DNA of 24,343 nucleotides, taken from a virus. The stretch lies in UHGV virus genome UHGV-0344763; one strand, given 5' to 3'. This document shows, piece after piece, positions 1-11,748 of the stretch. The translations under genes were made by a program, and so were the position numbers. Within the stretch, counting starts at the first letter, position 1. The number at the start of each line of letters is the position of its first letter. A model generated the notes under the pieces. That model was not told the origin of the DNA. It saw nothing but the letters and a program-made list of their open reading frames with translations, and ran no database searches.

Positions 1-74
1 ACACCTTTTTAAAATACAGCCCCAATAAACTGCAGAATATTATCCCATATAATATCCTGCAGTTCGTAATGCAC

Positions 75-205
75 TATTCGATAATGGGTCCTGTTGGCCA
101 TTCAATATCCGGTGCAGTTGATGTATCAACACGGTTCAGCAACACCCGATACTTTTTCCAGGCTTCCACCACCAGCACGACAAGATGCCGCATACAGTGA
201 CCCAG
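75..205 (-). pseudogene. 3-prime remnant of a tail fiber assembly (Tfa) gene, fused downstream of the truncated invertase
   Basis: Minus-strand translation after the invertase stop reads ...[30 protein letters not shown], matching the C-termini of the two intact Tfa proteins here (...[16 protein letters not shown]..., ...TDTSTAPDVIWPELPEA). Nucleotides ~97-140 are about 75-90 percent identical to ~1526-1570 (direct repeat). Confidence 0.45.
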
Positions 206-400
206 TCAGTCCAGTTTCCAGACAACCAGTGCGTCACCTTTTTGAAGGCGCTTTAAAGCACGTTTTAATCCAGGTCGGCCTGTCCTTATTCCGCTTAATT
301 TATCTTCAAATATTTGTTCACATCCTGCACAAACAAGAGCGTTTCGTTGCAGGTCTGTATTCTGGTCATTTGTTGATACACGTACATAGCCAATAAGCAT
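206..400 (-). pseudogene. Serine DNA invertase (Pin/Gin/Hin/Cin family), N-terminal ~64 codons only, ended by an in-frame TGA
   Basis: ORF 206..436 contains MLIGYVRVSTNDQNTDLQRNALVCAGCEQIFEDKLSG..RPGLKRALKRLQKGDALVVWKLD, the catalytic N-terminus of Gin/Pin-type invertases (active-site Ser in VRVST). A stop follows KLD where these invertases continue RLGRSMKHL; downstream sequence switches to Tfa-like. Confidence 0.8.
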
Positions 401-426
401 GTTAAATCCCCCTGGTAAAAGCAGGA

Positions 427-933
427 ATGATGCCATTTGCTTGTTATTTCTTCATTTTCATAAACGTTGGTTTAGGAGAAGGCTCAGCATTGCCTGTTGG
501 CGTACCTGTTCCGTGGCCCTCAGCCACTCCGCCAACAGGCTGGCTAAAATGCAATGGTGCGGCTTTTTCTGCTGAAGAATACCCGGAACTGGCAAAGGTT
601 TATCCGACAAATAAATTGCCTGATTTACGCGGTGAATTTATTCGTGGCTGGGATGACGGACGTGGAGTGGATGCCGGGCGACAATTATTATCTTCACAGG
701 GGGATGCAATAAGAAATATTGAGGGATTCGCAGATGGCGGGATCGGTATGTCTTTTGATGCAATCAGAGGGGCTTTTTACGATGCAGGAACACGATCAGC
801 GAGAATGCCGAATAACACAACTACTATAGACAAAACCGATGACCTTGGATTCGACGCCTCTCGTGTCGTGCCAACAGCTAATGAAAACCGTCCACGTAAC
901 ATCGCCTTTAATTATATTGTGAGGGCTGCATAA
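427..933 (+). CDS. Alternative tail fiber C-terminal (receptor-binding) segment, silent inverted copy
   Basis: Translation contains tail-fiber tip motifs (LPVGVPVPWPSATPPTGWLKCNGAAFSAEEYPELAKVYPT); lies opposite to the expressed fiber gene inside the putative invertible segment and lacks the constant N-terminal part. Confidence 0.7.
   Translation: MMPFACYFFIFINVGLGEGSALPVGVPVPWPSATPPTGWLKCNGAAFSAEEYPELAKVYPTNKLPDLRGEFIRGWDDGRGVDAGRQLLSSQGDAIRNIEGFADGGIGMSFDAIRGAFYDAGTRSARMPNNTTTIDKTDDLGFDASRVVPTANENRPRNIAFNYIVRAA
455..482. promoter_or_regulatory. Candidate invertase crossover site (gix/hix-like), left
   Basis: ttcataaacgttggtttaggagaa matches the reverse complement of the site at ~2286-2311 in 18 of 20 core positions (aaacNttggtttNggagaag); the AAACC..GGTTT core resembles hix/gix half-sites. 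Confidence 0.55.
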
Positions 934-1526
934 TGAAACCTGTTTTTGATGAAAATGGGCTGGCTACAGTGCCGGGTGATATGCGTTGTTTTTATTATGA
1001 TGCAGTAACGTCTGAATATACGGGCTGGTCTGATGAATATATTAATACTGGCGTAAGTATGCCCGCCTGTTCCACTGGTATTGACCCGGGCGAATACATT
1101 CCGGGGAAAGTGGCAGTATTTACGGGTAAGGGATGGAGCCATGAAGAAGACCACCGCAATGAGACTGTTTACTCAACCGAAAATGGCGCAGCTGTTACAG
1201 TGGATTATATCGGTGCCATCAAAAACGGTTATGTCACGCTTTCACCGTTAACGCCATATGATAAATGGGATGGTGAGAAATGGGTGACAGATACTGAGGC
1301 ACAGCATAACGCCGCAGTAGAAGCAGCAGAAGCACAGCGCCAGTCACTGATTGATGCTGCAATGGCTTCCATCAGCCTGATTCAGCTGAAATTACAGGCC
1401 GGGCGGAAGCTGACGCAGGCAGAAACCACCCGGCTTAACGCCGTGCTTGATTACATTGACGCGGTGACGGCAACAGACACGAGCACCGCGCCGGATGTCA
1501 TCTGGCCTGAACTGCCGGAGGCGTAG
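933..1526 (+). CDS. Tail fiber assembly protein (Tfa), silent inverted copy
   Basis: 197 aa; C-terminal conserved Tfa motif DYIDAVTATDTSTAPDVIWPELPEA; start overlaps the stop of the upstream fiber segment. Confidence 0.8.
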   Translation: MKPVFDENGLATVPGDMRCFYYDAVTSEYTGWSDEYINTGVSMPACSTGIDPGEYIPGKVAVFTGKGWSHEEDHRNETVYSTENGAAVTVDYIGAIKNGYVTLSPLTPYDKWDGEKWVTDTEAQHNAAVEAAEAQRQSLIDAAMASISLIQLKLQAGRKLTQAETTRLNAVLDYIDAVTATDTSTAPDVIWPELPEA

Positions 1527-1938
1527 GCCATTCAATATCTGGAGCACCGGAAGTATCGACCAGTTCCAGTGCGTCCAGATAATCCAGCCACAAATTATAT
1601 TGCGCCAGTTCCTCACCTTTCAGACGACCAATAGCTGCTTTACCAGGCCATTGCTTACTGTTTATGTATGCGTTGGCCTTATTAATCAATTGCTGCTTTT
1701 GCAATTCCGCTGCTGCAATCTGTTCTTCATGTGTTGGTGGTGGAATATCAATCCATGCTGGCATTCCGTCGATGACACCTCTGTATTTTCCTTCTGGTAC
1801 TTCCTTCATAAATTCAGCGGCAACAGTGTCGTCAATTTCGATTCCATCATCAGGCCATTTCCCCGCTTCCTGATAAGCAATTTTAAGCTCCACAGGGAAA
1901 AACGCATTTTTATCAGCACTGAAAATATATTTCTGCAT
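1498..1938 (-). CDS. Tail fiber assembly protein (Tfa), expressed orientation
   Basis: 146 aa; C-terminal ...[26 protein letters not shown]; immediately downstream of the fiber gene; its 3-prime end converges on and overlaps the plus-strand tfa. Confidence 0.85.
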   Translation of the reverse strand: MQKYIFSADKNAFFPVELKIAYQEAGKWPDDGIEIDDTVAAEFMKEVPEGKYRGVIDGMPAWIDIPPPTHEEQIAAAELQKQQLINKANAYINSKQWPGKAAIGRLKGEELAQYNLWLDYLDALELVDTSGAPDIEWPTPPAVQAR

Positions 1939-1940
1939 TT

Positions 1941-2588
1941 CTACCGTCCTATCGAAATATAACTGAATCTGTATTGTTGAGAGATATCACTGATTGCCAC
2001 GCGCCACGCTGAATTACTGATATGTTCAAAATTTACAGATAAAACCAGCGGTGCAGGATTCGACGGTTCTGACTGAACGGCATCAGACATGACACTGACT
2101 GAAACAAGCGGTTGATTAGGGAATGGTATAGGGAAGTGTCCACTGATAATGCGGGTCGTGTTCCCTGAAAAAGTGCCAAACTGAACAATATATCCACCTG
2201 GTAGCCTGAACCATCCCGAACCAGAAGCGAATGCTCCCATATCCGGTATCTGATTATCTCCTGTGCCCACATCCCTTTTCGCCGCTTCTCCCAAACCAAG
2301 GTTTTCGAGAGCCGTTTTCACCGTGCCATCCGATTTGATATCGCCAAACGGATTCTTGCGGCTTAACAGCAGCGCACGAAGCGCGGTAAGCAGCTGGTCA
2401 TGCCGCCCCTTCTCCAGGCTGGCACCGGATGCCTCCACCACGCTGCAGAGTTCTTCCTGCAACATATCAAAGTAGTCATCATCCAGATCGGTGGCAGGCG
2501 TGCCGGTCTGGGGGTTACCACGGGTAAAACCGTTCTTACCCGCGCCGAACTTATCCTTCTGCGCGGTTTTCGTGTCTATGCGATGCAT
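1941..2588 (-). CDS. Tail fiber protein (short, e14/Mu-S-like), with a constant N-terminal part of ~92 codons joined to a variable C-terminal segment
   Basis: 215 aa; last gene of the baseplate operon; putative crossover site at codon ~92; C-terminal part shows fiber-tip composition (G/S/N-rich). Confidence 0.8.
2284..2311. promoter_or_regulatory. Candidate invertase crossover site (gix/hix-like), right, inside the fiber gene
   Basis: ttctcccaaaccaaggttttcgagag resembles hixL-type sites (TTCTTGAAAACCAAGGTTTTTGATAA, from memory) and is an inverted repeat of the site at ~457-480. Confidence 0.55.
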
Positions 2589-2591
2589 GGA

Positions 2592-3176
2592 TTACTCCGG
2601 ATATTTAAAAATTACGTAGGTATGCGACGGGCAGAGTTTGTTAAGCACACACTCGACAACGGTGTCGCCCCAGATACGCAGTGCGGAATCACAGGGATCG
2701 CCACATGTCATCCAGGTGGTGTTGGTGGCGGCTGGCATGTTGACCTGCCAGTAATACCGCCATTCCGGCGCATTCACCGCGTCAGTACAGGCCGATGAGC
2801 AGGTGAACGTGCTTTTGTCGTATCGAGTGATGGTGGCGTCTGGTCTGCCCAGGGCAGCAAGCTGTGCAAGGTAAAAATCCTCATTGATGCCGCCCGCCAG
2901 GTTAACCTTCGCATCCAGTCGTTGCTGACGCTGGCGAAGGGTCTGTGTCCCTGCGGGAATACATTCATCCGGCAGGCCGCACAGACGCTCCCAGCGATTT
3001 ATCAGTTCGGTGGTGGTGCGCGGATCCAGCTCCCGCATCAGGGCATCCGCACGCTGATGAACGCGGGTTAATGACGGTGCCGCACCGGCAATCGCCGGAT
3101 CGCTGGCTGACCACGCCGGACCGGGGGGCAACAGTGCCGACAACAGACGGATGTAATCATCGTTTGTCACGTCCAT
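2592..3176 (-). CDS. Tail/baseplate protein, Mu gp48-like (YmfQ/DUF2313-type)
   Basis: 194 aa, between baseplate J-like protein and tail fiber; family assignment by position and recollection of e14/Mu-like modules. Confidence 0.7.
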
Positions 3177-4225
3177 GAAATCGTCCCCAGTACCGCCAGT
3201 TCATTTTTTGCAATGGAGATATTGTCTGCCGGTGCAAGCAACTGATGGCTGTATTCCCCGTTCGCACCGGAAATCGCCTCACTGATACGCGACACCTTCA
3301 GTTCTCCCTGCGGATAACCATCACGCAGCAGGAACGAACGCAACTCTGCGGTGATGGCAGCCCGTATTTCCGGTGTGTCCGGTGTCACGCGGATATGAAA
3401 ATCCACTTTATGCGCCACCGGCCTGAATACATACAAATCAGAGCCTGCCACCGGGGCCAGTGGCCCGATATGTTGTCTTGCTGCCGTTTCCGTTGATTCT
3501 TCCGGAATGGGATTAATCAGGTCACTGCCGGCAATCATCACACCGACAGTCCCCGTTCCCATCCAGTGGCGGTATGTCCATGCACGGGTAATGCCGGGCA
3601 CTTCTTTAGCCCAGACAACATAGTCCCCGTCAGCCCCGCCCTGAGGCGTCCAGTAATACCGCTCAATGACGCGGGCGCGCCACGTTTCCAGATCTTCAGT
3701 ATCGAATCCGCCAGTCAGGGTATCTGCAACACCGGAAGACGGCAGACCATTCACCGGCGTGACCAGGATTAATGCCGTACCGTCGTCAGCGTTACCGACC
3801 GCGCCTGCACTTGAGCAGGCGATCGGCACGCGCAGGACACCACCGGAGCTGGTTGCATCAGCAGTTGCCGTGTACTGAACCAGGTCATCGCGCTGAATAA
3901 CACTCCCGGCGGTCACCTTCAGGCCATCGCTGACACCTTCCCAGCGCATATACCCGCTGGCAGTCGTGGCCCCCTTGCGCGGACACCGTTTCATCGCAGC
4001 ATGTCGCGCCAGCCAGGACTCATCGCACAGGTCAGGCAGCATGTTCATTGCCAGATAATCGATGTAACCGTAAACCGTATGCAGCGCCGCCGCATACACC
4101 TTTGCCCGCACGTCTTCATCCATGCGCCGGAGCGTGTCGCTGACGTCCAGCCTGGCGAATAAATCGTTACGGAGCATACTGATATTTTCTGCCAGCGTCG
4201 GGCGCTGAAATTCACTGTCCGCCAT
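3167..4225 (-). CDS. Baseplate J-like protein (Mu gp47-like)
   Basis: 352 aa; position in baseplate operon and size typical of baseplate J/gp47. Confidence 0.75.
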
Positions 4226-4640
4226 GCGTTATCGCACTCCACAGATCATCAAAAGAAATCATTACCGGTCCGTCACGACGCCAGAGGGCGATACTGTTAC
4301 CCAGCTCATTAATCCCGGTGCGGCGGATATCCAGATCAATACGGGACACCACGCCGTCATCAATCATCCATTGCAGGCATTCGCGGATATACCCCCTTAC
4401 TGTCTGCACCAGCTGATTGGTCAGTTTGCTGCGCTGAAGCAGCCACAGTCGGGAGCCGTAACGGTCATTCTGTACCGCAGGCCAGGTATCCCCCCACCAT
4501 CCCATCGGGACGTCGGCGTTGTCATCAGGCTCCGCCCGCCGCCAGGTAAACAGGGAAATCACCACGGCGCGGGTCAGCGGATCCAGCGGTGCGCTGGCGC
4601 AGGTGCGTTTACCGTTCACCGTCAGCCACAGTTCCATCAT
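4212..4640 (-). CDS. Baseplate protein, Mu gp46-like
   Basis: 142 aa; operon position between spike protein and baseplate J. Confidence 0.65.
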   Translation of the reverse strand: MMELWLTVNGKRTCASAPLDPLTRAVVISLFTWRRAEPDDNADVPMGWWGDTWPAVQNDRYGSRLWLLQRSKLTNQLVQTVRGYIRECLQWMIDDGVVSRIDLDIRRTGINELGNSIALWRRDGPVMISFDDLWSAITHGGQ

Positions 4641-5185
4641 GCCTCCATCGCTTTATCCGGTTTGTCGGTGTTACTGCCCTGACCGTTCTCTCTGTGACGA
4701 TGCCCGTTATAGGCAAGCCGCATCGCTGACATGGTAGTGCCGCTGGAGTCGCACAGGTCTTTCACCTGTCCTGTCACTTCCAGGTCCATTTCAAAACGTG
4801 CTTTAGGTGAATTGCGAAACGTGATCGTTTTACCTGCACCGTCCACCACGATCCCCTCCCGGGTCAGCGTCACGGACTGCCCCTGATCGTCATAGACAGC
4901 CACCTCACCCGTCTGCAGCCCTTTCAGGCGGTAGCGCCGGTCCGACACCGTAACAACCACCGCATGAGAACGGTCGCCATCCGGAAACAACACCACCGCT
5001 TCCGCACCGCTGTTTGCCCTTGCGGTAAAACCGTAGGGTTCAAGATGTTCAACCCCGGCTTTGGGTTCACCGGCAATCAGGGACACATCCACGGTCTGAC
5101 ATTTCGTGGCGGCACTGATACTTTTCACCACTGCCCGCCCAATCAGGCCGAGGAGTTGTCGCTGCATGGCTTCAATCGACCTCAT
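4637..5185 (-). CDS. Baseplate assembly/spike protein V (Mu gp45-like)
   Basis: 182 aa; gpV-like N-terminal beta-rich region; 4-nt overlap with neighbours. Confidence 0.75.
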   Translation of the reverse strand: MRSIEAMQRQLLGLIGRAVVKSISAATKCQTVDVSLIAGEPKAGVEHLEPYGFTARANSGAEAVVLFPDGDRSHAVVVTVSDRRYRLKGLQTGEVAVYDDQGQSVTLTREGIVVDGAGKTITFRNSPKARFEMDLEVTGQVKDLCDSSGTTMSAMRLAYNGHRHRENGQGSNTDKPDKAMEA

Positions 5186-6264
5186 CAGAACGGGTCCTCC
5201 TGTACTCTGGCTTTTTTCTTTTTCCGCGCGCCGGGGGCTTCGGGTTCAGGCAGATAAGCATCAGGTGGGCCGACACGGATTTCCGTCAGGGTGCCGTTCT
5301 GGTCCTGAGTAAACGTGACTTCCGAGACAAGCAGTTCGGTATTGTCGAAACCACAGACCGGATCGAAGACAATCACCCGCTGGTTGGGCTGCCACAGCGT
5401 ACCGTTACCCTGTCGCCAGCCCTGCACCACATAGGTGGTTTCATCCGTCCGCGCCGCCCGTTGTCGGGCTTCAAAGTCAGCACGCGCAATACAGCCTGCC
5501 CCCGTAGCCTGCCCTGTCTGCCTGATATACATCGGACGGTAACGGGCAATAAATGCGTCCTCTGTGCGGGCCCGTAGCGCGGTGGTGGTGGCCTCACCGA
5601 AATCATCGTCGTTTCCGGCACGCTGCCCCGCCACCTGGTAAACAGAAAACCGCTCCCGGATACTCTTCTCCGTATCGCAGGAAAGGATGTTTTCCCCAAG
5701 TACCAGCGCGGTATGTGCCCGCGTTGAGCCAATACCGCCAATCACCAGCCTGCCGTGCGTGTCGTCATAAGCCAGCGCCTGCTGCTGACCGAGTATTTTG
5801 TTAATCACCTCGATCACCGTTTCACCGTGATCAGGCTGGACATCAGGAATAACACCCGACGGCGCACCGCTGTTCACCACCTCAATGCCGAAGGGCGCAG
5901 CAAGCGCCTGCGCAATCTGTACCAGTGATCGTCCGTTAAACTGTGTCGGTTCGGCTGCACAGTCAATCAGGTCAGCGGTCAGACTGCGTCCGGCAATACC
6001 GGTGCTGACCGAACGGGCATCGTAACGAACGGGCGTCGCCTCCACCCAGCCGGTGATCACCAGCTCATCACCAATCAGCACCTCCACTTTTGAACCGTTT
6101 TTAATGCGCGGCTGAAGCGTGGTGATACCCTCATCACCCGGCCACTGGCGGGTGATCTCCACACTGAAATCCCGCGCCAGCCGTTCAATACCGGCACCGA
6201 TGCGCACCGATGTCCAGCCATTCCACTCCCGGCCATTTACCCGTAGCGTGACATTGTCGTTCAT
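5185..6264 (-). CDS. Baseplate hub / tail protein, Mu gpP-like (late control D family)
   Basis: 359 aa; follows the DNA circulation protein as in Mu-like tails. Confidence 0.75.
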   Translation of the reverse strand: MNDNVTLRVNGREWNGWTSVRIGAGIERLARDFSVEITRQWPGDEGITTLQPRIKNGSKVEVLIGDELVITGWVEATPVRYDARSVSTGIAGRSLTADLIDCAAEPTQFNGRSLVQIAQALAAPFGIEVVNSGAPSGVIPDVQPDHGETVIEVINKILGQQQALAYDDTHGRLVIGGIGSTRAHTALVLGENILSCDTEKSIRERFSVYQVAGQRAGNDDDFGEATTTALRARTEDAFIARYRPMYIRQTGQATGAGCIARADFEARQRAARTDETTYVVQGWRQGNGTLWQPNQRVIVFDPVCGFDNTELLVSEVTFTQDQNGTLTEIRVGPPDAYLPEPEAPGARKKKKARVQEDPF

Positions 6265-7631
6265 TGCACTGGCACCTTCAGAGGGATCACCGGCACAAAG
6301 CCGGGATGCGTAATGGCATTACGCCGGATAATGTCCGCGTCACGCGCCGCGTTATCAAACCAGGTCGCCGCCAGCACCAGCGCGGGTAAAACCTCATCCG
6401 GTGTGCGCTGAATGATCCGAGCAGACTGTTCAAGGCGCGTGTTGATATCCGCATTCAGATCTGCTTTCACCCGGCGCAGCGCCAGAAACAGCGCATCGCT
6501 GGTTGTACGGGACAACTCCTTATCAATTGCCGTATTCAGTGTGTCGCGAATGTCGGTCAGTTCTTCCCACGTTGGCAGGTCAACCGTATTTTTCACCGCC
6601 GGTGCATTGTTCAGTGCCGGATGCGTGACGGAAGGCCAGCCGGAGCTCTGCGCGAGTGTTGTTGACTGCCCCACTGCGGCATTCTGCATCACCGCAGAAG
6701 TTGTTGGCGCAGGCAATCGGGTGACGGCATACGCCGCTTCGCTGATTGCAGTCGTACGAAGGGTGCTGGCAACCACGTTACGCTGCTGCGTCGCCGTGGC
6801 GGTGGTTTTACTGTCCGTTTTCCAGACGCCGCGCGGTTGCAGATCGCTGCCAAGGCTGACACCAGAAAGCGTTTTGATCATGGTGACCAGGTCGCTGGCG
6901 TTACCGTAAAGGCGTTTCCCGGTACGCCACATTTTCTGCACCTGCTCAACGAAATTTTTGCCTGACGATGGCGGCGGCAGAAGTACCGAGATATCCCCCT
7001 GCAACAGCCTGGCGGCATCCGATACGGCAGAATCCACCACTTTCATCGCATCAGAAACATACCCAAGCATTGTGCTGACATTACCGACGACGTCGTTCTG
7101 CACAAAATCCGCCACGCCATCGATACTGAAACCGCTGAAGCTGTCACTGATGCAGTCATCCAGTGCAGAACAGGATGACATCAGCGTCTGCGCCGTCGCC
7201 GCACCTGATGTGGGGTAAGAGAGTTCTCCTGCTTCGACAAACTTCAGGTCAAAACGGACAATACGCCCTTCACTCTTCGATGTGCTGACCCGAACTTCCC
7301 CGTCAACACAGACTTTCAGCTCACCGTAAGTCGGATGGACAAGCGTGCCGGGACCGGGTTTATTCAGCGCGTCAATCAGGCGATCGCGCTGGTCAAAGCA
7401 GTCATCTCCCACCACATAAGCCGTGATGGACGGGCGGAAAGTGATTTTCCCCAGGTCCTCGGTATAGGGTTTGTCGCGGTTCGGGTATTCGTGCGTTTCC
7501 ACACGACGGCCGGTTCCCGCACTTTCTTCTTCAACCTTAAACGGCACACCGCGAAATGACGCGTCCTGAAGTCTGTCTTTCCACGTCATATAAACTCCGT
7601 ACATAAAAAATCCCACCGGAGTGGGACTCAT
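6261..7631 (-). CDS. DNA circulation protein (Mu gpN-like)
   Basis: 456 aa directly downstream of the tape measure gene; N-terminal region typical of the Mu N family. Confidence 0.75.
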   Translation of the reverse strand: MSPTPVGFFMYGVYMTWKDRLQDASFRGVPFKVEEESAGTGRRVETHEYPNRDKPYTEDLGKITFRPSITAYVVGDDCFDQRDRLIDALNKPGPGTLVHPTYGELKVCVDGEVRVSTSKSEGRIVRFDLKFVEAGELSYPTSGAATAQTLMSSCSALDDCISDSFSGFSIDGVADFVQNDVVGNVSTMLGYVSDAMKVVDSAVSDAARLLQGDISVLLPPPSSGKNFVEQVQKMWRTGKRLYGNASDLVTMIKTLSGVSLGSDLQPRGVWKTDSKTTATATQQRNVVASTLRTTAISEAAYAVTRLPAPTTSAVMQNAAVGQSTTLAQSSGWPSVTHPALNNAPAVKNTVDLPTWEELTDIRDTLNTAIDKELSRTTSDALFLALRRVKADLNADINTRLEQSARIIQRTPDEVLPALVLAATWFDNAARDADIIRRNAITHPGFVPVIPLKVPVQ

Positions 7632-7649
7632 TAACAGATTAATTTTTCA

Positions 7650-9485
7650 TTACCTGCCAAAGCGCGTATAGCCAACATCATGGCTGACATCAAAACCGCT
7701 GGATCGCGTTTCCATAACCCGCATACCCGGAGGCGAATTCACAAAAGAGACCTTGATCTCACCATCAACTTTTGGCGCAGAAGCTTTGTTAATCATGAAG
7801 GGATTCGGGCCTGTGGCACCGGAGGCGTTGTTTGACTGAGCCGGATCTACCGCCGGATAAGGTGTGTATCCCCGCGCCGGTATTCCCGCCCCATAAGCAT
7901 CATAAGCACCCGCGCCCCACTGCGCAGAGTTAATGGCATCGACCGTGTCACCGGAACTGTCGGTAAACCACTCAATAATTGGCTTCAGCTTGTCCCACAT
8001 ATCCTGAAACCACTTAACAACCGGCCCCCAGTTATTGATCACCATCCCCAGCGGCGACCAGGCAAAAACTTTCTTAAGGAGTTCCCAGCCAGCCTCAAAA
8101 TAAGGACCAATGGTTTCCCAGAGTTTCTTAAAATAAGGTCCGACAACATCCCAGTTAGTGATAATTAATCCCGCAGCCAGGGCTATCGCCGTCGCAATCA
8201 TGCCAATCGGCGTCATCGACATGATCCTGCTGACAATACTGATGGCACCGCCAACGCCCATCAATCCCAGTTTCAGAATCGCAAGACCGGCAGCAAGCCC
8301 GACGACGCCGCGAATAACCCGGGGATTTTCATCCGCAAACTTCGTGAATTTCTCCCCCACCTCCCCCAGCCATTGCGTGATATTTTTAGCGTCACCAGAA
8401 AATGCGCCGCCAATAGCCGCAAGGCCGTTAGTTGCGGTCCCTGTCATTGCCTCCCACAGGTTGGACAGCGTACCAAGCTGTGCCTGAACACGTTTATTCA
8501 GGCTGGCCTGTTTATTCATCTTCTGCTGGATCTGATCGTAGCCATCCTTTCCTTTATCGATCAGCGCATTGACCACCTGAAGGGTTTCGGCATCATCACC
8601 AAATATTGCCTTAAGTACACCAGTTCGTTTAACGTCGGTCAGTTTTCGCAGCTTTGCCAGTTGCCTGAACATGTTATCAAGACCGCCAAAACTCCCTTTG
8701 CCGTCAGTAAAATCGAGCTGTACCCCGAGTTTCTGGCGGGCCATGATTTTATTGACGTCCCTGATTTTCTTAACGCTTAATCCGGACTGGATAACTTTTC
8801 GCAGGGCGTTACCTGCCGACTCCCCGTTCATCCCCATCTGATCCATCATGACGCTGATGGGGGCAAGGCTCTGTGCAGCCTGAAGACCGTCCTTGTTCAC
8901 CATCTTCAGAACAGAACTGGTTTTAGTGAAGAAGGACAACATGTTGGTATCGTCAACGCCCAGATAAAACGCCTTCTGGATAGTGTCGAACAGCCCCATC
9001 ATGTCTTCTGACGCCGTTCCGGTAGCATCCTGCATCTTTGCGGCAAACTCGGCAGCCGCTTCCGGTGTTTTTTTCAGTTGTACCGCAAGATAAGCTGTCG
9101 CTTTACCCACACCGCCAAGAATGTTTTCTGCCGGGATCCCCTGACGCACCAGCATCTGCATCATGTTCTGAAAATCAGCCGTTGTACCGGGTAGCTGGTT
9201 ACCCAGACCAATAGCCAGTTTATTGATGTCCTGAAAGCTCTTTCCGACCTCACCGTTCGCATCCATCATGGCAACTTTCAGCCCGGTGGCGGCGTTTTCC
9301 TGATCGGCATAAGATTTCAGGGAAAGCGTCAGACCCGCTGCCAGTCCGCCACCAAGCGCCAGCCCACCCTGTGACGCTTCTTCCGCCTGGCGTTTAAATC
9401 CCCGGATTTTCTTTTGCATTTTCGACAGCGCGGGAGAAAGCCTGTCGACACCGGTGATCAACGCCTTAAGCTCAAATTCAGCCAT
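7650..9485 (-). CDS. Tail tape measure protein
   Basis: 611 aa, Ala/Gly/Leu-rich with predicted helical and hydrophobic segments; follows the frameshifted chaperone pair. Confidence 0.85.
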   Translation of the reverse strand: MAEFELKALITGVDRLSPALSKMQKKIRGFKRQAEEASQGGLALGGGLAAGLTLSLKSYADQENAATGLKVAMMDANGEVGKSFQDINKLAIGLGNQLPGTTADFQNMMQMLVRQGIPAENILGGVGKATAYLAVQLKKTPEAAAEFAAKMQDATGTASEDMMGLFDTIQKAFYLGVDDTNMLSFFTKTSSVLKMVNKDGLQAAQSLAPISVMMDQMGMNGESAGNALRKVIQSGLSVKKIRDVNKIMARQKLGVQLDFTDGKGSFGGLDNMFRQLAKLRKLTDVKRTGVLKAIFGDDAETLQVVNALIDKGKDGYDQIQQKMNKQASLNKRVQAQLGTLSNLWEAMTGTATNGLAAIGGAFSGDAKNITQWLGEVGEKFTKFADENPRVIRGVVGLAAGLAILKLGLMGVGGAISIVSRIMSMTPIGMIATAIALAAGLIITNWDVVGPYFKKLWETIGPYFEAGWELLKKVFAWSPLGMVINNWGPVVKWFQDMWDKLKPIIEWFTDSSGDTVDAINSAQWGAGAYDAYGAGIPARGYTPYPAVDPAQSNNASGATGPNPFMINKASAPKVDGEIKVSFVNSPPGMRVMETRSSGFDVSHDVGYTRFGR

Positions 9486-10252: not shown

Positions 10253-11748
10253 TATGCAGACTCCTCTGAATACTGAAGACGGAACTGGTTAACCACGGCA
10301 AAGACACGCAACTGGTTAACATAGTCAGGCGGGAACAGCGTGTTCAGGCGGTTCGGATCGCTGGCATCACGCTCCACAACCAGGTACTGCTTAAACAGTT
10401 CGTAGTTTTCCACGATCCCCGCACGCTCAAGCTGACGGTAGGTTGCCAGCAGTTCCCCTTTGATCACCGCCGGGGTGACAATCGCCTGACCGGGACCAAA
10501 GCGGGTACCGTCACTGGCAAGCTTGTGACGCCCGTACTTACTGGTAATGACGGATTTCAGTTTGCGCAGTACATACGCGCTGGTATGCAGAGTCTCACTG
10601 TCTAGGTAGCTGTTATCCGCAACCCCGTAAGCGTTTTTCCTGTACGTGGTGACATCACGCTGAATGCGCAGTACCCCGCTTTCGACATACGCCGTTGCCA
10701 CGCCATGAGACAGCAGGGTCTGTTGTTCGGTCATCGTGAACCGTTTCCCCTTCGGCGCAGGCAGCATACCCACCAGCTCACCGGTCTGCGTGGGACGTGC
10801 CGGATCGTTGCGAATAAACACCGCTGCGCGGGCGGTACGGCTTGCCGCCAGCTCGTCGGCAGGCGTCTGGGTCTCTTTTTCGTATCCCGCCAGGGTAATG
10901 TGCTGCTGGTTAAACTGGTCACCTGCGGTCACCAGTTCTGACAGCGTGCCGATCTTTGCCGTATACACATGACCATACAGCTGACGCGCATAGCTCCAGC
11001 GACCGCTGGTATCGTTCATCTCGGTCACCAGCGTGTTAACGGAGGCCGTGTCGTTGAACGGCAGGCCGATATAATCAAACGGCTCATCCGCCATTGCAGC
11101 CACCGCGCCGGTGAGAACAGGAGCGCCCGTTCCGGCGGTACCCGTCGCCACGGCAATCTGTACGCCCGCTGGCAGCACTTCGCCCCCACCAAAGCCGTAG
11201 TAATTGAGGCTGACAGGAATTTCATTCCCGCAAAGCCCCTTATGACGCGCGGTCAGTGTGACCACGCCTGCCGAAGATGAGGCAGTAAACGGCAGGGTCG
11301 GAACGGCATTGATGGCATCCTGGATACTGCTGGCAATCGTCGCAACGTTATCGCCGTTGGTCACCGGTGCCTGCACGCGGGTACGTCCCACATAAACATT
11401 CACCGTGCCGGTTTCGGTTGCCGCGCCGGTCACCGTCAGCGTAACCGTTGCCGCCGCGCCCGTGGATTCAGGAACGGCAATCACATACAGCTCGCCAAAC
11501 GGGTCGGTCTGGCGATAAGCCTCGACCATACGCGCCAGCTGACTTCCCGCACCACAAATCTGGCGTGCATAGTCTGCCGACGGCATCAGTACCAGACTGT
11601 TGGCAACAATCTCTGCACCGTTATTGGCATGACCAATCAGCAGCGATGCTCCGCTGTCCTGTGCAGTATTCGCCGCCTGATTATCCATTTCCGCATAAAA
11701 CAGCGGAACCAGCGTATTCGACGGAATGGTGTTAAAGCTTATCGTCAT
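10252..11748 (-). CDS. Contractile tail sheath protein (Mu gpL-like)
   Basis: 498 aa; size and operon position. Confidence 0.85.
   Translation of the reverse strand: MTISFNTIPSNTLVPLFYAEMDNQAANTAQDSGASLLIGHANNGAEIVANSLVLMPSADYARQICGAGSQLARMVEAYRQTDPFGELYVIAVPESTGAAATVTLTVTGAATETGTVNVYVGRTRVQAPVTNGDNVATIASSIQDAINAVPTLPFTASSSAGVVTLTARHKGLCGNEIPVSLNYYGFGGGEVLPAGVQIAVATGTAGTGAPVLTGAVAAMADEPFDYIGLPFNDTASVNTLVTEMNDTSGRWSYARQLYGHVYTAKIGTLSELVTAGDQFNQQHITLAGYEKETQTPADELAASRTARAAVFIRNDPARPTQTGELVGMLPAPKGKRFTMTEQQTLLSHGVATAYVESGVLRIQRDVTTYRKNAYGVADNSYLDSETLHTSAYVLRKLKSVITSKYGRHKLASDGTRFGPGQAIVTPAVIKGELLATYRQLERAGIVENYELFKQYLVVERDASDPNRLNTLFPPDYVNQLRVFAVVNQFRLQYSEESA

Follow-up and report, generated by a model that had tools for sequence, protein, structure and literature searches.

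The stretch of DNA analysed here (the window, 24,343 nucleotides of the virus genome UHGV-0344763) carries an SfV-like prophage with a Mu-type tail, located beside bioA-ybhB in the E. coli chromosome. The left flank of the window continues into a DGC gene, ybhB and bioA, the other prophage end lies beyond the end of the contig, and the set of tail, head and lysis ORFs is complete and unbroken, making up a full SfV-like late region. Where the tail operon ends we found an invertible cassette of 1,831 bp (468-2298, ~1.83 kb) with two fibre-tip modules, each accompanied by a chaperone gene. The modules had been described as head-to-head in an earlier reading of the letters (the sequence-only reading); they are actually convergent (tail-to-tail), and the 3' ends of their tfa genes overlap by 29 bp.

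The full fibre ORF (1941-2588, minus strand, 215 aa, with a Gp53-like C-terminus) is composed of two parts. The constant N-terminal part (residues 1-97; 2299..2588, minus strand) lies outside the segment as the last gene of the baseplate operon, with YmfQ/Mu gp48-like and Baseplate_J genes upstream, and shows a weak match to residues 41-115 of the Mu fibre S. The currently expressed variable C-terminal module (residues 98-215; 1941..2297, minus strand) contains a gp53-like domain (PF21882, E=9e-9), and its chaperone (1498..1938, minus strand, 146 aa; Caudo_TAP, E=7e-34) is 57% identical to K-12 TfaP and 95% identical to the homologue in Escherichia phage SKA5. On the other strand lies a silent alternative C-terminal module (481..933, plus strand, 150 aa) of the Collar or T4 gp37-gp12 type (Pfam Collar, E=3.9e-15; PHROG tail collar fibre; PDB matches 9cuy, E=7.7e-33, and T4 gp37 2xgf, E=2.7e-15), with an amino acid identity of 100% to the SKA5 module and 60% to K-12 StfE. 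The silent chaperone belonging to it (933..1526, plus strand, 197 aa; Caudo_TAP, E=5e-28) is 63% identical to K-12 TfaE and 97% identical to that of SKA5. With these Pfam, PHROG and PDB matches the plus-strand ORFs are borne out as fibre and Tfa homologues, and the comparison with known domains that had been proposed earlier sets a Collar/T4 gp37 tip beside a gp53-like tip. The mechanically called ORF of the alternative module (427-933, plus strand) has its start outside the segment, in a hydrophobic leader, MMPFACYFFIFINVGLGE (427-480), that is conserved with K-12 stfE.

Two crossover sites bound the cassette. The left, pix-like site (455-480, minus strand) reads TTCTCCTAAACC AA CGTTTATGAAAA with its crossover dinucleotide at 467-468, and the right site (2286-2311, plus strand) reads TTCTCCCAAACC AA GGTTTTCGAGAG with the dinucleotide at 2298-2299; both share the central AA in inverted orientation, and the repeat arms (462-481 and 2285-2304, 20 nt) are 90% complementary. 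Hence the inverted ~26-bp sites of the sequence-only reading are confirmed, including an exact match of their claimed core, aaacNttggtttNggagaag, and both align with gix, cix and pix from the Mu, P1 and K-12 records. The right site is identical to the stfP-side site of K-12 e14 at 26/26 positions, and the left site to its e14 counterpart at 25/26, the sole change being a C to T at position 7, which is the base found in gix and cix. When all 24.3 kb were scanned with a consensus derived from Gin, Cin and Pin sites (TTCYCNNAAACCRANGTTTNNGA, at most two mismatches), the only matches were 458-480 (minus strand) and 2286-2308 (plus strand); none of 100 shuffled sequences contained any match, so that the chance expectation is 0. 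The crossover had earlier been placed at codon ~92 of the fibre gene; the right site in fact occupies codons 93-101, and the dinucleotide falls within the codon of Leu97. From there the constant N-terminus joins in frame to either module, each then followed by its own chaperone, and inversion in silico yields an in-frame fibre of 251 aa. The C-terminal swap as previously proposed therefore stands, with other lengths: 118 aa are exchanged for 154 aa, not ~123 for 150.

The neighbouring invertase gene is only a remnant. The pseudogene pin' (165..400, minus strand) comprises codons 1 to ~78, where its homology ends, and is interrupted by a TGA at codon 65 (206-208). It retains the catalytic-serine motif YVRVSTNDQ and the Resolvase N-terminal domain only, and lacks the helix-E region and the C-terminal DNA-binding domain, so the segment is not adjoined by an intact serine invertase, which would have ~185-190 aa, a catalytic domain and a helix-turn-helix at its C-terminus. 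The translation confirms that no complete gene has been mistaken for a fragment. The fragment is a mosaic: nt 1-21 are pinE-like, nt 22-200 are 95% identical to Mu gin and nt 201-236 are again pinE-like. The fragmentary state of this gene had gone unmentioned in the sequence-only reading. Fused to it in frame is the 3' fragment of a tail-fibre assembly (tfa) gene (74..178, minus strand, seen in translation), which repeats the tfa 3' end at 1523-1569 (direct repeat D1) and whose identical counterpart in strain 1409 is an incomplete tfa in the RefSeq annotation. The idea that the chimeric invertase arose when an SfV-like phage integrated through homology (Campbell-type) into a gin-type remnant already resident was also considered and is unsupported, the fragment being a three-part mosaic and the other prophage end lying outside the contig. 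Searches with Gin, PinE and the SKA5 invertase (tblastn) found no other invertase in the 24-kb window. With its invertase gene in cis dead, the switch cannot work on its own. The fragment nevertheless holds a putative Fis-dependent recombinational enhancer equivalent at 311..382 (nt 19-90 of the invertase gene), assigned by homology: in the P1 record the annotated cin enhancer spans nt 19-90 of that gene, and 70 of the 72 positions in the window match the same part of Mu gin. The near edge of this stretch is ~85 bp from the left crossover, a spacing similar to that of the Hin enhancer, which lies roughly 100 bp from its site (PMC3798978).

Judged by sequence, the locus is homologous to the P segment of e14, beyond mere similarity. 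Gene order and orientation (stfP-tfaP / tfaE-stfE' / pinE, with the invertase PinE) are shared, as are the size of 1.8 kb, the 29-bp tfa overlap and the stfE leader, and 100 of the first 101 fibre residues are the same as in K-12 StfP. The DNA is 94-98% identical to e14-type P segments, and to e14 and SKA5 everywhere to the right of the left site. The K-12 tip alleles themselves differ from those of the window (57-63% protein identity), whereas other e14 copies carry the window's module alleles at 94-98% DNA identity. The K-12 invertase is the 184-aa PinE, in contrast to the dead fragment in the window, and K-12 e14 is a 15-kb remnant at icd with mcrA, whereas the window has a full SfV-like morphogenesis region beside bioA-ybhB-DGC. 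In true e14 copies icd' and mcrA adjoin pinE; the marks of e14 itself (integration at icd, mcrA beside pinE, a defective element of ~15 kb) are absent from the window. The closest phage, SKA5 (OR670062), is ~97% identical in its segment, fibre and baseplate genes and shares the orientation; its homology to the window begins at 462, at the left site, and beyond it SKA5 has an intact 187-aa invertase, which belongs to another subtype (44% identity to Gin) and precedes dinI and int. In SfV, SfII and SfI the tail genes are shared as well, but the shared part of the fibre reaches only to window position 2238.

The mechanism class is that of the Mu G segment with Gin and the P1 C segment with Cin, which have 26-bp sites of the consensus TTCYCNNAAACC-RA-GGTTT... 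and, as in the window, a constant fibre N-terminus and alternative C-termini with chaperones; their enhancer lies within the 5' part of the invertase gene, where the window has its putative equivalent. However, Mu and P1 have far longer fibres (504 and 987 aa) and segments (3.0 and 4.2 kb), the gix core of Mu is GA instead of AA, and their tip modules are unrelated to those of the window apart from the weak N-terminal match to Mu S. The Salmonella H segment with Hin shares the invertase family and the Fis/enhancer mechanism with systems of this type, but carries a promoter where the window's segment carries alternative coding modules. Salmonella also provides a precedent for an invertase of another prophage (Fin) flipping a segment in trans (PMC3798978; PMC12529663). 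The earlier assignment to the Mu G / P1 C / e14 P type on a short e14-like fibre is supported by the sites, the in-frame inversion and the homology.

Inversion of homologous segments can be seen among sequenced genomes. Among complete E. coli genomes the form found in the window is covered to at least 80% in 10 records and the predicted inverted form in 24; genes resembling pinE (at least 80% query coverage) occur in 1,179 of the 5,426 complete genomes. Between the e14 copies of strains 22AR0747 and WR3-3 the flanks are 100% identical and a segment of 1,833 bp is exactly inverted, with 15-bp overlaps that correspond to window positions 467-481 and 2285-2299. Inversion of the e14 P segment has been demonstrated experimentally (PMC12529663, PMC4272514), in trans by PinQ/PinR as well as by PinE (PMC12529663).

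Taken together, we consider it probable (about 0.78) that this is a P segment of the e14 type, belonging to the Gin/Cin/Pin/Hin serine-invertase family, which has been orphaned and flips only if a related invertase acts in trans. Exchange at the central dinucleotide would replace the gp53-like tip (215-aa fibre) by the collar-type tip (251-aa fibre) in frame. Since pin' is dead while the enhancer-equivalent sequence persists in the fragment and both sites look competent, the segment would stay in the gp53-like-tip orientation as long as no related invertase is supplied in trans by another prophage to work together with host Fis. Candidate enzymes are PinE, PinQ/PinR and those of the Gin and Fin types, and with such an enzyme flipping would proceed as in e14. 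The biological output is most likely an alternative adsorption specificity of the phage particle, and the host-range switch that had been proposed for the locus is one that we infer by analogy with Mu and P1. Apart from its orphaning the locus is ordinary, a copy of a known system with the cassette intact. That e14 P inverts was already known in the 1980s, and its inversion in trans by invertases of other prophages was published in 2025 (PMC12529663).

Another reading, which we consider possible but doubtful, is that a formerly inverting segment has been permanently locked with the gp53-like tip since the loss of its invertase, leaving the second module as decaying cargo. The dead invertase in cis would be expected then, and the exact locus, seen in the window and in three independent contigs with identical fibre, has one orientation in all four observations, which fits a locked state. 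Decay is visible in two sister loci that share this dead invertase: the right site and the constant part are missing from PSS-08-1, while PSS-11 lacks the constant part together with the tail genes. However, the silent module and chaperone in the window are intact ORFs with 100% and 97% protein identity to SKA5, both sites are canonical, the enhancer equivalent has been kept, and the homologous e14 segment is known to be inverted in trans (PMC12529663). The sister loci, moreover, occur in both orientations, PSS-08-1 being oriented like the window and PSS-11 opposite. Had PSS-11 been a simple flip of the window's segment it would have proved trans inversion; this was rejected because the interior differs by 5.6% (94.4% identical) next to a 100% identical flank (481/481), and because the A/G variant of the inner half-site is on the left in both, following position and not module. 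By these sequences the orientation of PSS-11 could be explained by recombinational replacement of the segment, without trans inversion. When metagenomes were scanned for the left junction specific to this locus, in both orientations, nine loci were found, none of them the dead-invertase locus; all nine are e14 variants whose invertase region is of the pinE type and only 82-87% identical to window 165-481.

The sharp breaks of identity at or beside the left site suggest an extension of the orphaned-segment reading. In PSS-11 the identical flank gives way there to the divergent interior, in SKA5 an unrelated invertase region gives way to 97% identity from 462 onwards, and the same segment is abutted by three different invertase types. 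Tentatively, and with the odds rather against it, the crossover sites might serve as joints of cassette exchange besides being inversion points, with orphan P segments kept in play by the invertases of other prophages. If trans inversion or exchange between prophages does take place, an orphan switch would be a working part of a cell-wide, multi-prophage recombination network, which could serve phage host range or host defence.

By analogy with e14 StfE2, the locus could also have an anti-phage role on the side of the host. Here inversion would act in host defence and not in host range, by placing a fibre tip behind the short ORF start that lies outside the segment beside the invertase, so that a small chimera (an analogue of StfE2) blocks the adsorption of other phages; we regard this as improbable for the window. 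According to Kirigo et al., T2 adsorption is blocked by e14 StfE2, which consists of the leader and a gp53-like tip, once PinQ has inverted the segment, and protection of the host against phage T2 is the only phenotype demonstrated for e14 (PMC12529663). In the window the leader MMPFACYFFIFINVGLGE is likewise conserved, and inversion would move the gp53-like tip behind it. However, the phenotype was demonstrated for K-12 alleles only, and the tip in the window differs from K-12 StfP (57% identity overall). A scan for promoters and terminators over 1-3300 gave nothing above shuffled expectation, including no promoter-like site upstream of the leader. Because the array of tail, head and lysis ORFs is complete, a function in the virion is the simpler reading. 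Finally, a chance or purely coding origin of the inverted repeat, for which it could be said that both arms lie inside coding sequence and that the shared core encodes the same peptide (...N-L/V-G-L-G-E...), is refuted almost with certainty by the empty shuffles, by the identity of the sites to those of the experimentally inverted e14 segment and by the breakpoints of exact natural inversions, which fall in the shared core.

For the orphaned P segment, some practical points follow at this locus. The ORF of 167/168 aa annotated as 'phage tail protein' represents the promoter-less alternative tip, the 64-aa 'recombinase family protein' is a pseudogene, and inverted or chimeric contigs are to be expected in assemblies. 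The locus also offers a natural test case of whether an invertible fibre cassette stays active after its own invertase has been lost.

The sequence-only reading had proposed an invertible tail-fibre switch bounded by inverted crossover sites, and the observation is confirmed here and its interpretation supported. A repeat finder run with a 6-nt seed detects inverted-repeat arms of 20 nt (462-481 and 2285-2304, 90% complementary) that are missed with an 8-nt seed. Written with the segment-internal half first, the left site (reverse complement of 455-480) reads TTCTCCTAAACC AA CGTTTATGAAAA, and the right site, which lies within the fibre gene (2286-2311), reads TTCTCCCAAACC AA GGTTTTCGAGAG. As had been suggested, we aligned these 26-mers to gix (Mu record), cix (annotated P1 record) and both e14 sites of K-12 MG1655; all of them share TTCYCNNAAACC-RA-NGTTT. 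The right site is identical to the K-12 stfP-side site (26/26). The left site matches the stfE-side site at 25/26 positions, the sole change being C to T at position 7, where T is also the base of gix and cix. When the consensus was searched with up to two mismatches, the 24.3 kb contained both sites and nothing else, and 0 of 100 dinucleotide-preserving shuffles yielded any match. Both sites carry the same dinucleotide at their centre, in inverted orientation, which is what inversion needs.

The right site lies within a 215-aa fibre gene (1941-2588, minus strand), the terminal gene of a contiguous Mu/SfV-type baseplate operon that includes a Baseplate_J gene (3167-4225, minus strand) and a YmfQ/Mu gp48-like gene (2592-3176, minus strand); next after the fibre gene comes a 146-aa Caudo_TAP chaperone (1498-1938, minus strand). 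Converging on these are a plus-strand fibre-tip ORF with a Collar domain (tip proper 481-933, within the mechanical ORF 427-933) and a 197-aa Caudo_TAP chaperone (933-1526, plus strand), which upholds the assignment of the plus-strand ORFs as fibre and Tfa homologues. The two modules had been described as lying head-to-head; the 3' ends of both chaperone genes share a 29-bp overlap and therefore the modules are instead tail-to-tail. In Pfam searches the expressed tip matches the Gp53-like C-terminal domain (PF21882, E=9e-9) and the silent tip the Collar domain (E=3.9e-15). By sequence the silent tip also matches solved tips of short and long tail fibres (9cuy, E=7.7e-33; T4 gp37, 2xgf, E=2.7e-15; T4 gp12). 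The constant N-terminus of the fibre gives a weak match to Mu fibre S over residues 41-115 of the latter (E=0.03-0.06), which fits attachment to a Mu-type baseplate.

The right crossover dinucleotide (2298-2299) occupies positions 2-3 of fibre codon Leu97, and its left counterpart (467-468) likewise falls at positions 2-3 of a codon in the plus-strand ORF. Inverting 469-2297 in silico gave an uninterrupted 251-aa fibre in which constant residues 1-97 are joined through GLGE to the collar-type tip. The variable part now expressed has 118 aa and the alternative one 154 aa; the earlier figures (codon ~92, 123 aa and 150 aa) were close, though not exact. We propose that Din-family, Fis/enhancer-dependent inversion between the two sites would exchange the fibre tip together with the chaperone that belongs to it, where the late operon ends.

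The invertase adjoining the segment is dead, a point that goes beyond the first account. Beside the left site, the invertase ORF on the minus strand starts MLIGYVRVSTNDQ at position 400 and, read leftward, meets a TGA at codon 65 (206-208). Its invertase homology ends near nt 236 (about codon 78), and past this point the same frame reads on into the 3'-terminal ~30 codons of a gene for tail-fibre assembly (74-178). In Pfam this invertase fragment, pin' (165-400, minus strand), retains only the N-terminal resolvase domain, and tblastn with Gin, PinE and the invertase of Escherichia phage SKA5 revealed no further invertase sequence in the window. The fragment is a three-part mosaic: nt 1-21 are pinE-like (20/21), nt 22-200 are Mu gin-like (170/179, 95%) and nt 201-236 are again pinE-like (31/36). 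An enhancer equivalent is probably retained, as judged by alignment: in the P1 record, nt 19-90 of cin are annotated as its enhancer, and the equivalent stretch is kept at window 311-382, where 70/72 positions match Mu gin. Its near edge and the left crossover are ~85 bp apart, similar to the spacing of roughly 100 bp reported for Hin (PMC3798978). The first switch point of the mosaic falls inside this stretch. Both sites and the probable enhancer survive and the enzyme alone is missing; we therefore infer that inversion is possible only in trans. The locus would be frozen with the gp53-like tip unless another prophage supplied a related invertase. Among 5,426 complete E. coli genomes, 1,179 carry pinE-like genes at a query coverage of at least 80%, and other invertase subtypes come on top of these.

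On sequence grounds the region is homologous to the P segment of e14, the cryptic prophage of K-12. Identity to other e14 copies and to SKA5 at the DNA level is 94-98% in each interval right of the left site, the right site being identical in 26/26 positions. These copies share the tip and chaperone alleles of the window, whereas K-12 e14, whose fibre residues 1-101 differ from the window at one position, carries different alleles with 57-63% protein identity. The system is already known, with near-identical copies present in RefSeq genomes and phage SKA5; what we add is the dead mosaic invertase, the probable enhancer equivalent, the chromosomal location and sister orphan loci in both orientations. 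The structural genes of SfII, SfI, SfV and vB_EcoM-689R6 are 97% identical to those of the window prophage; in SfV-group phages homology ends at 2238, 60 bp into the invertible segment. The prophage (2238-24343) is a mosaic in which structural genes are joined at the right end to a lambdoid lysis / Q antiterminator / NinG / phosphatase region.

Both orientations are found in nature. Phase variation of e14 has been shown in MG1655 cultures (PMC4272514), and the 1.8-kb P segment is inverted by PinE as well as, in trans, by the PinQ/PinR enzymes that other cryptic prophages encode (PMC12529663). Comparing e14 of 22AR0747 with that of WR3-3, we found flanks of 100% identity and a 1,833-bp segment that is exactly inverted at 100% identity, with 15-bp overlaps corresponding to window 467-481 and 2285-2299. 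In the 5,426 complete E. coli genomes searched with a coverage threshold of 80%, the window arrangement is covered in 10 records and the predicted inverted arrangement in 24, several of them as one collinear piece over 100% of the query. The exact fibre of the window occurs in one orientation in 4/4 independent observations (the window and contigs L003, L004 and L005). Two short-read contigs with the identical fibre break at 1561 and 1594, where the tfa gene on the minus strand has its 3' end; the stretch 1523-1569 beside them repeats window 93-139, and the breaks probably result from repeat-induced assembly rather than being a sign of inversion. Metagenome contig QZLQ01004179.1 (2,566 bp) has the invertase-side flank at both ends in opposite orientations, a palindromic assembly of the kind that a sample containing an e14-type segment in both orientations should produce.

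The chromosomal location is given by ENA metagenome contig ERZ27264773 k141_197, which is 100% identical to window 1-8588 and continues leftward beyond the window into a MASE4-GGDEF diguanylate cyclase (DGC) gene, then ybhB, bioA and bioB. This left flank shares 98.4% identity with E. coli strain 1409. According to the record coordinates, the right end of the window coincides exactly with the end of the contig. The joint of pin' with a tfa 3' fragment (tfa', 74-178, minus strand), searched with window 1-260 that spans it, is found at a query coverage of at least 80% in 95 complete E. coli genomes, with 99.2-100% identity among the records listed. In strains 1409 and PSS-11 it lies beside the cyclase gene at bioA-ybhB, so it looks like an old, widespread scar. 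In strain 1409, a Mu-type gix site comes after pin', and a heavily deleted lambdoid remnant comes after that; therefore one invertase remnant abuts two site types across strains. This gix site (6455-6480 of the strain 1409 locus, L002) reads TTCCTGTAAACC GA GGTTTTAGATAA and leads into different downstream DNA. A near-perfect hairpin just downstream of the neighbouring cyclase gene (window 28-64; 16-nt arms AACTGCAGAATATTAT / ATAATATCCTGCAGTT, 94% complementary, 5-nt loop) lacks a T-run and was not predicted to be a terminator.

Only two complete genomes, PSS-08-1 and PSS-11, have pin' joined to the P segment, and these sister loci, as aligned, show the orphan arrangement in both orientations. 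PSS-08-1 has the orientation of the window; homology stops at window 2248, and it has lost the right site, the constant part of the fibre and the tail genes. In PSS-11, at the same bioA-ybhB-DGC site, the left flank is identical to the window (481/481) and is followed by the segment in opposite orientation. We rejected PSS-11 and the window as a clean before-and-after inversion pair: the interior is only 94.4% identical beside the identical flank, and in both loci an A/G difference of the inner half-site keeps its position on the left, so there is a recombination breakpoint at the site. PSS-11 could have arisen either by inversion followed by allele replacement or by replacement alone. Its far-end site (L022, the PSS-11 locus, ~11210-11240) reads TTCTCCCAAACC AA GCTTTATGTCAA; the outer half resembles the invertase-side half-site, and the start codon with which it overlaps belongs to a DUF2158 gene, which stands in place of the fibre constant part. 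This site may be the product of recombination with a secondary site.

With respect to function, we rank a role in virion host range first because the minus-strand array of tail, head, terminase and lysis ORFs is unbroken. A host-side anti-adsorption role, as reported for e14 StfE2, is kept as a rival for two reasons. The hydrophobic leader with which the silent-tip ORF begins, outside the segment (427-480, plus strand; MMPFACYFFIFINVGLGE), is conserved with K-12 stfE, and the in-silico inversion would bring the gp53-like tip behind it; in e14 the equivalent start drives the reported StfE2 chimera (PMC12529663). ORFs like 427-933 are labelled in RefSeq as complete 'phage tail protein'.
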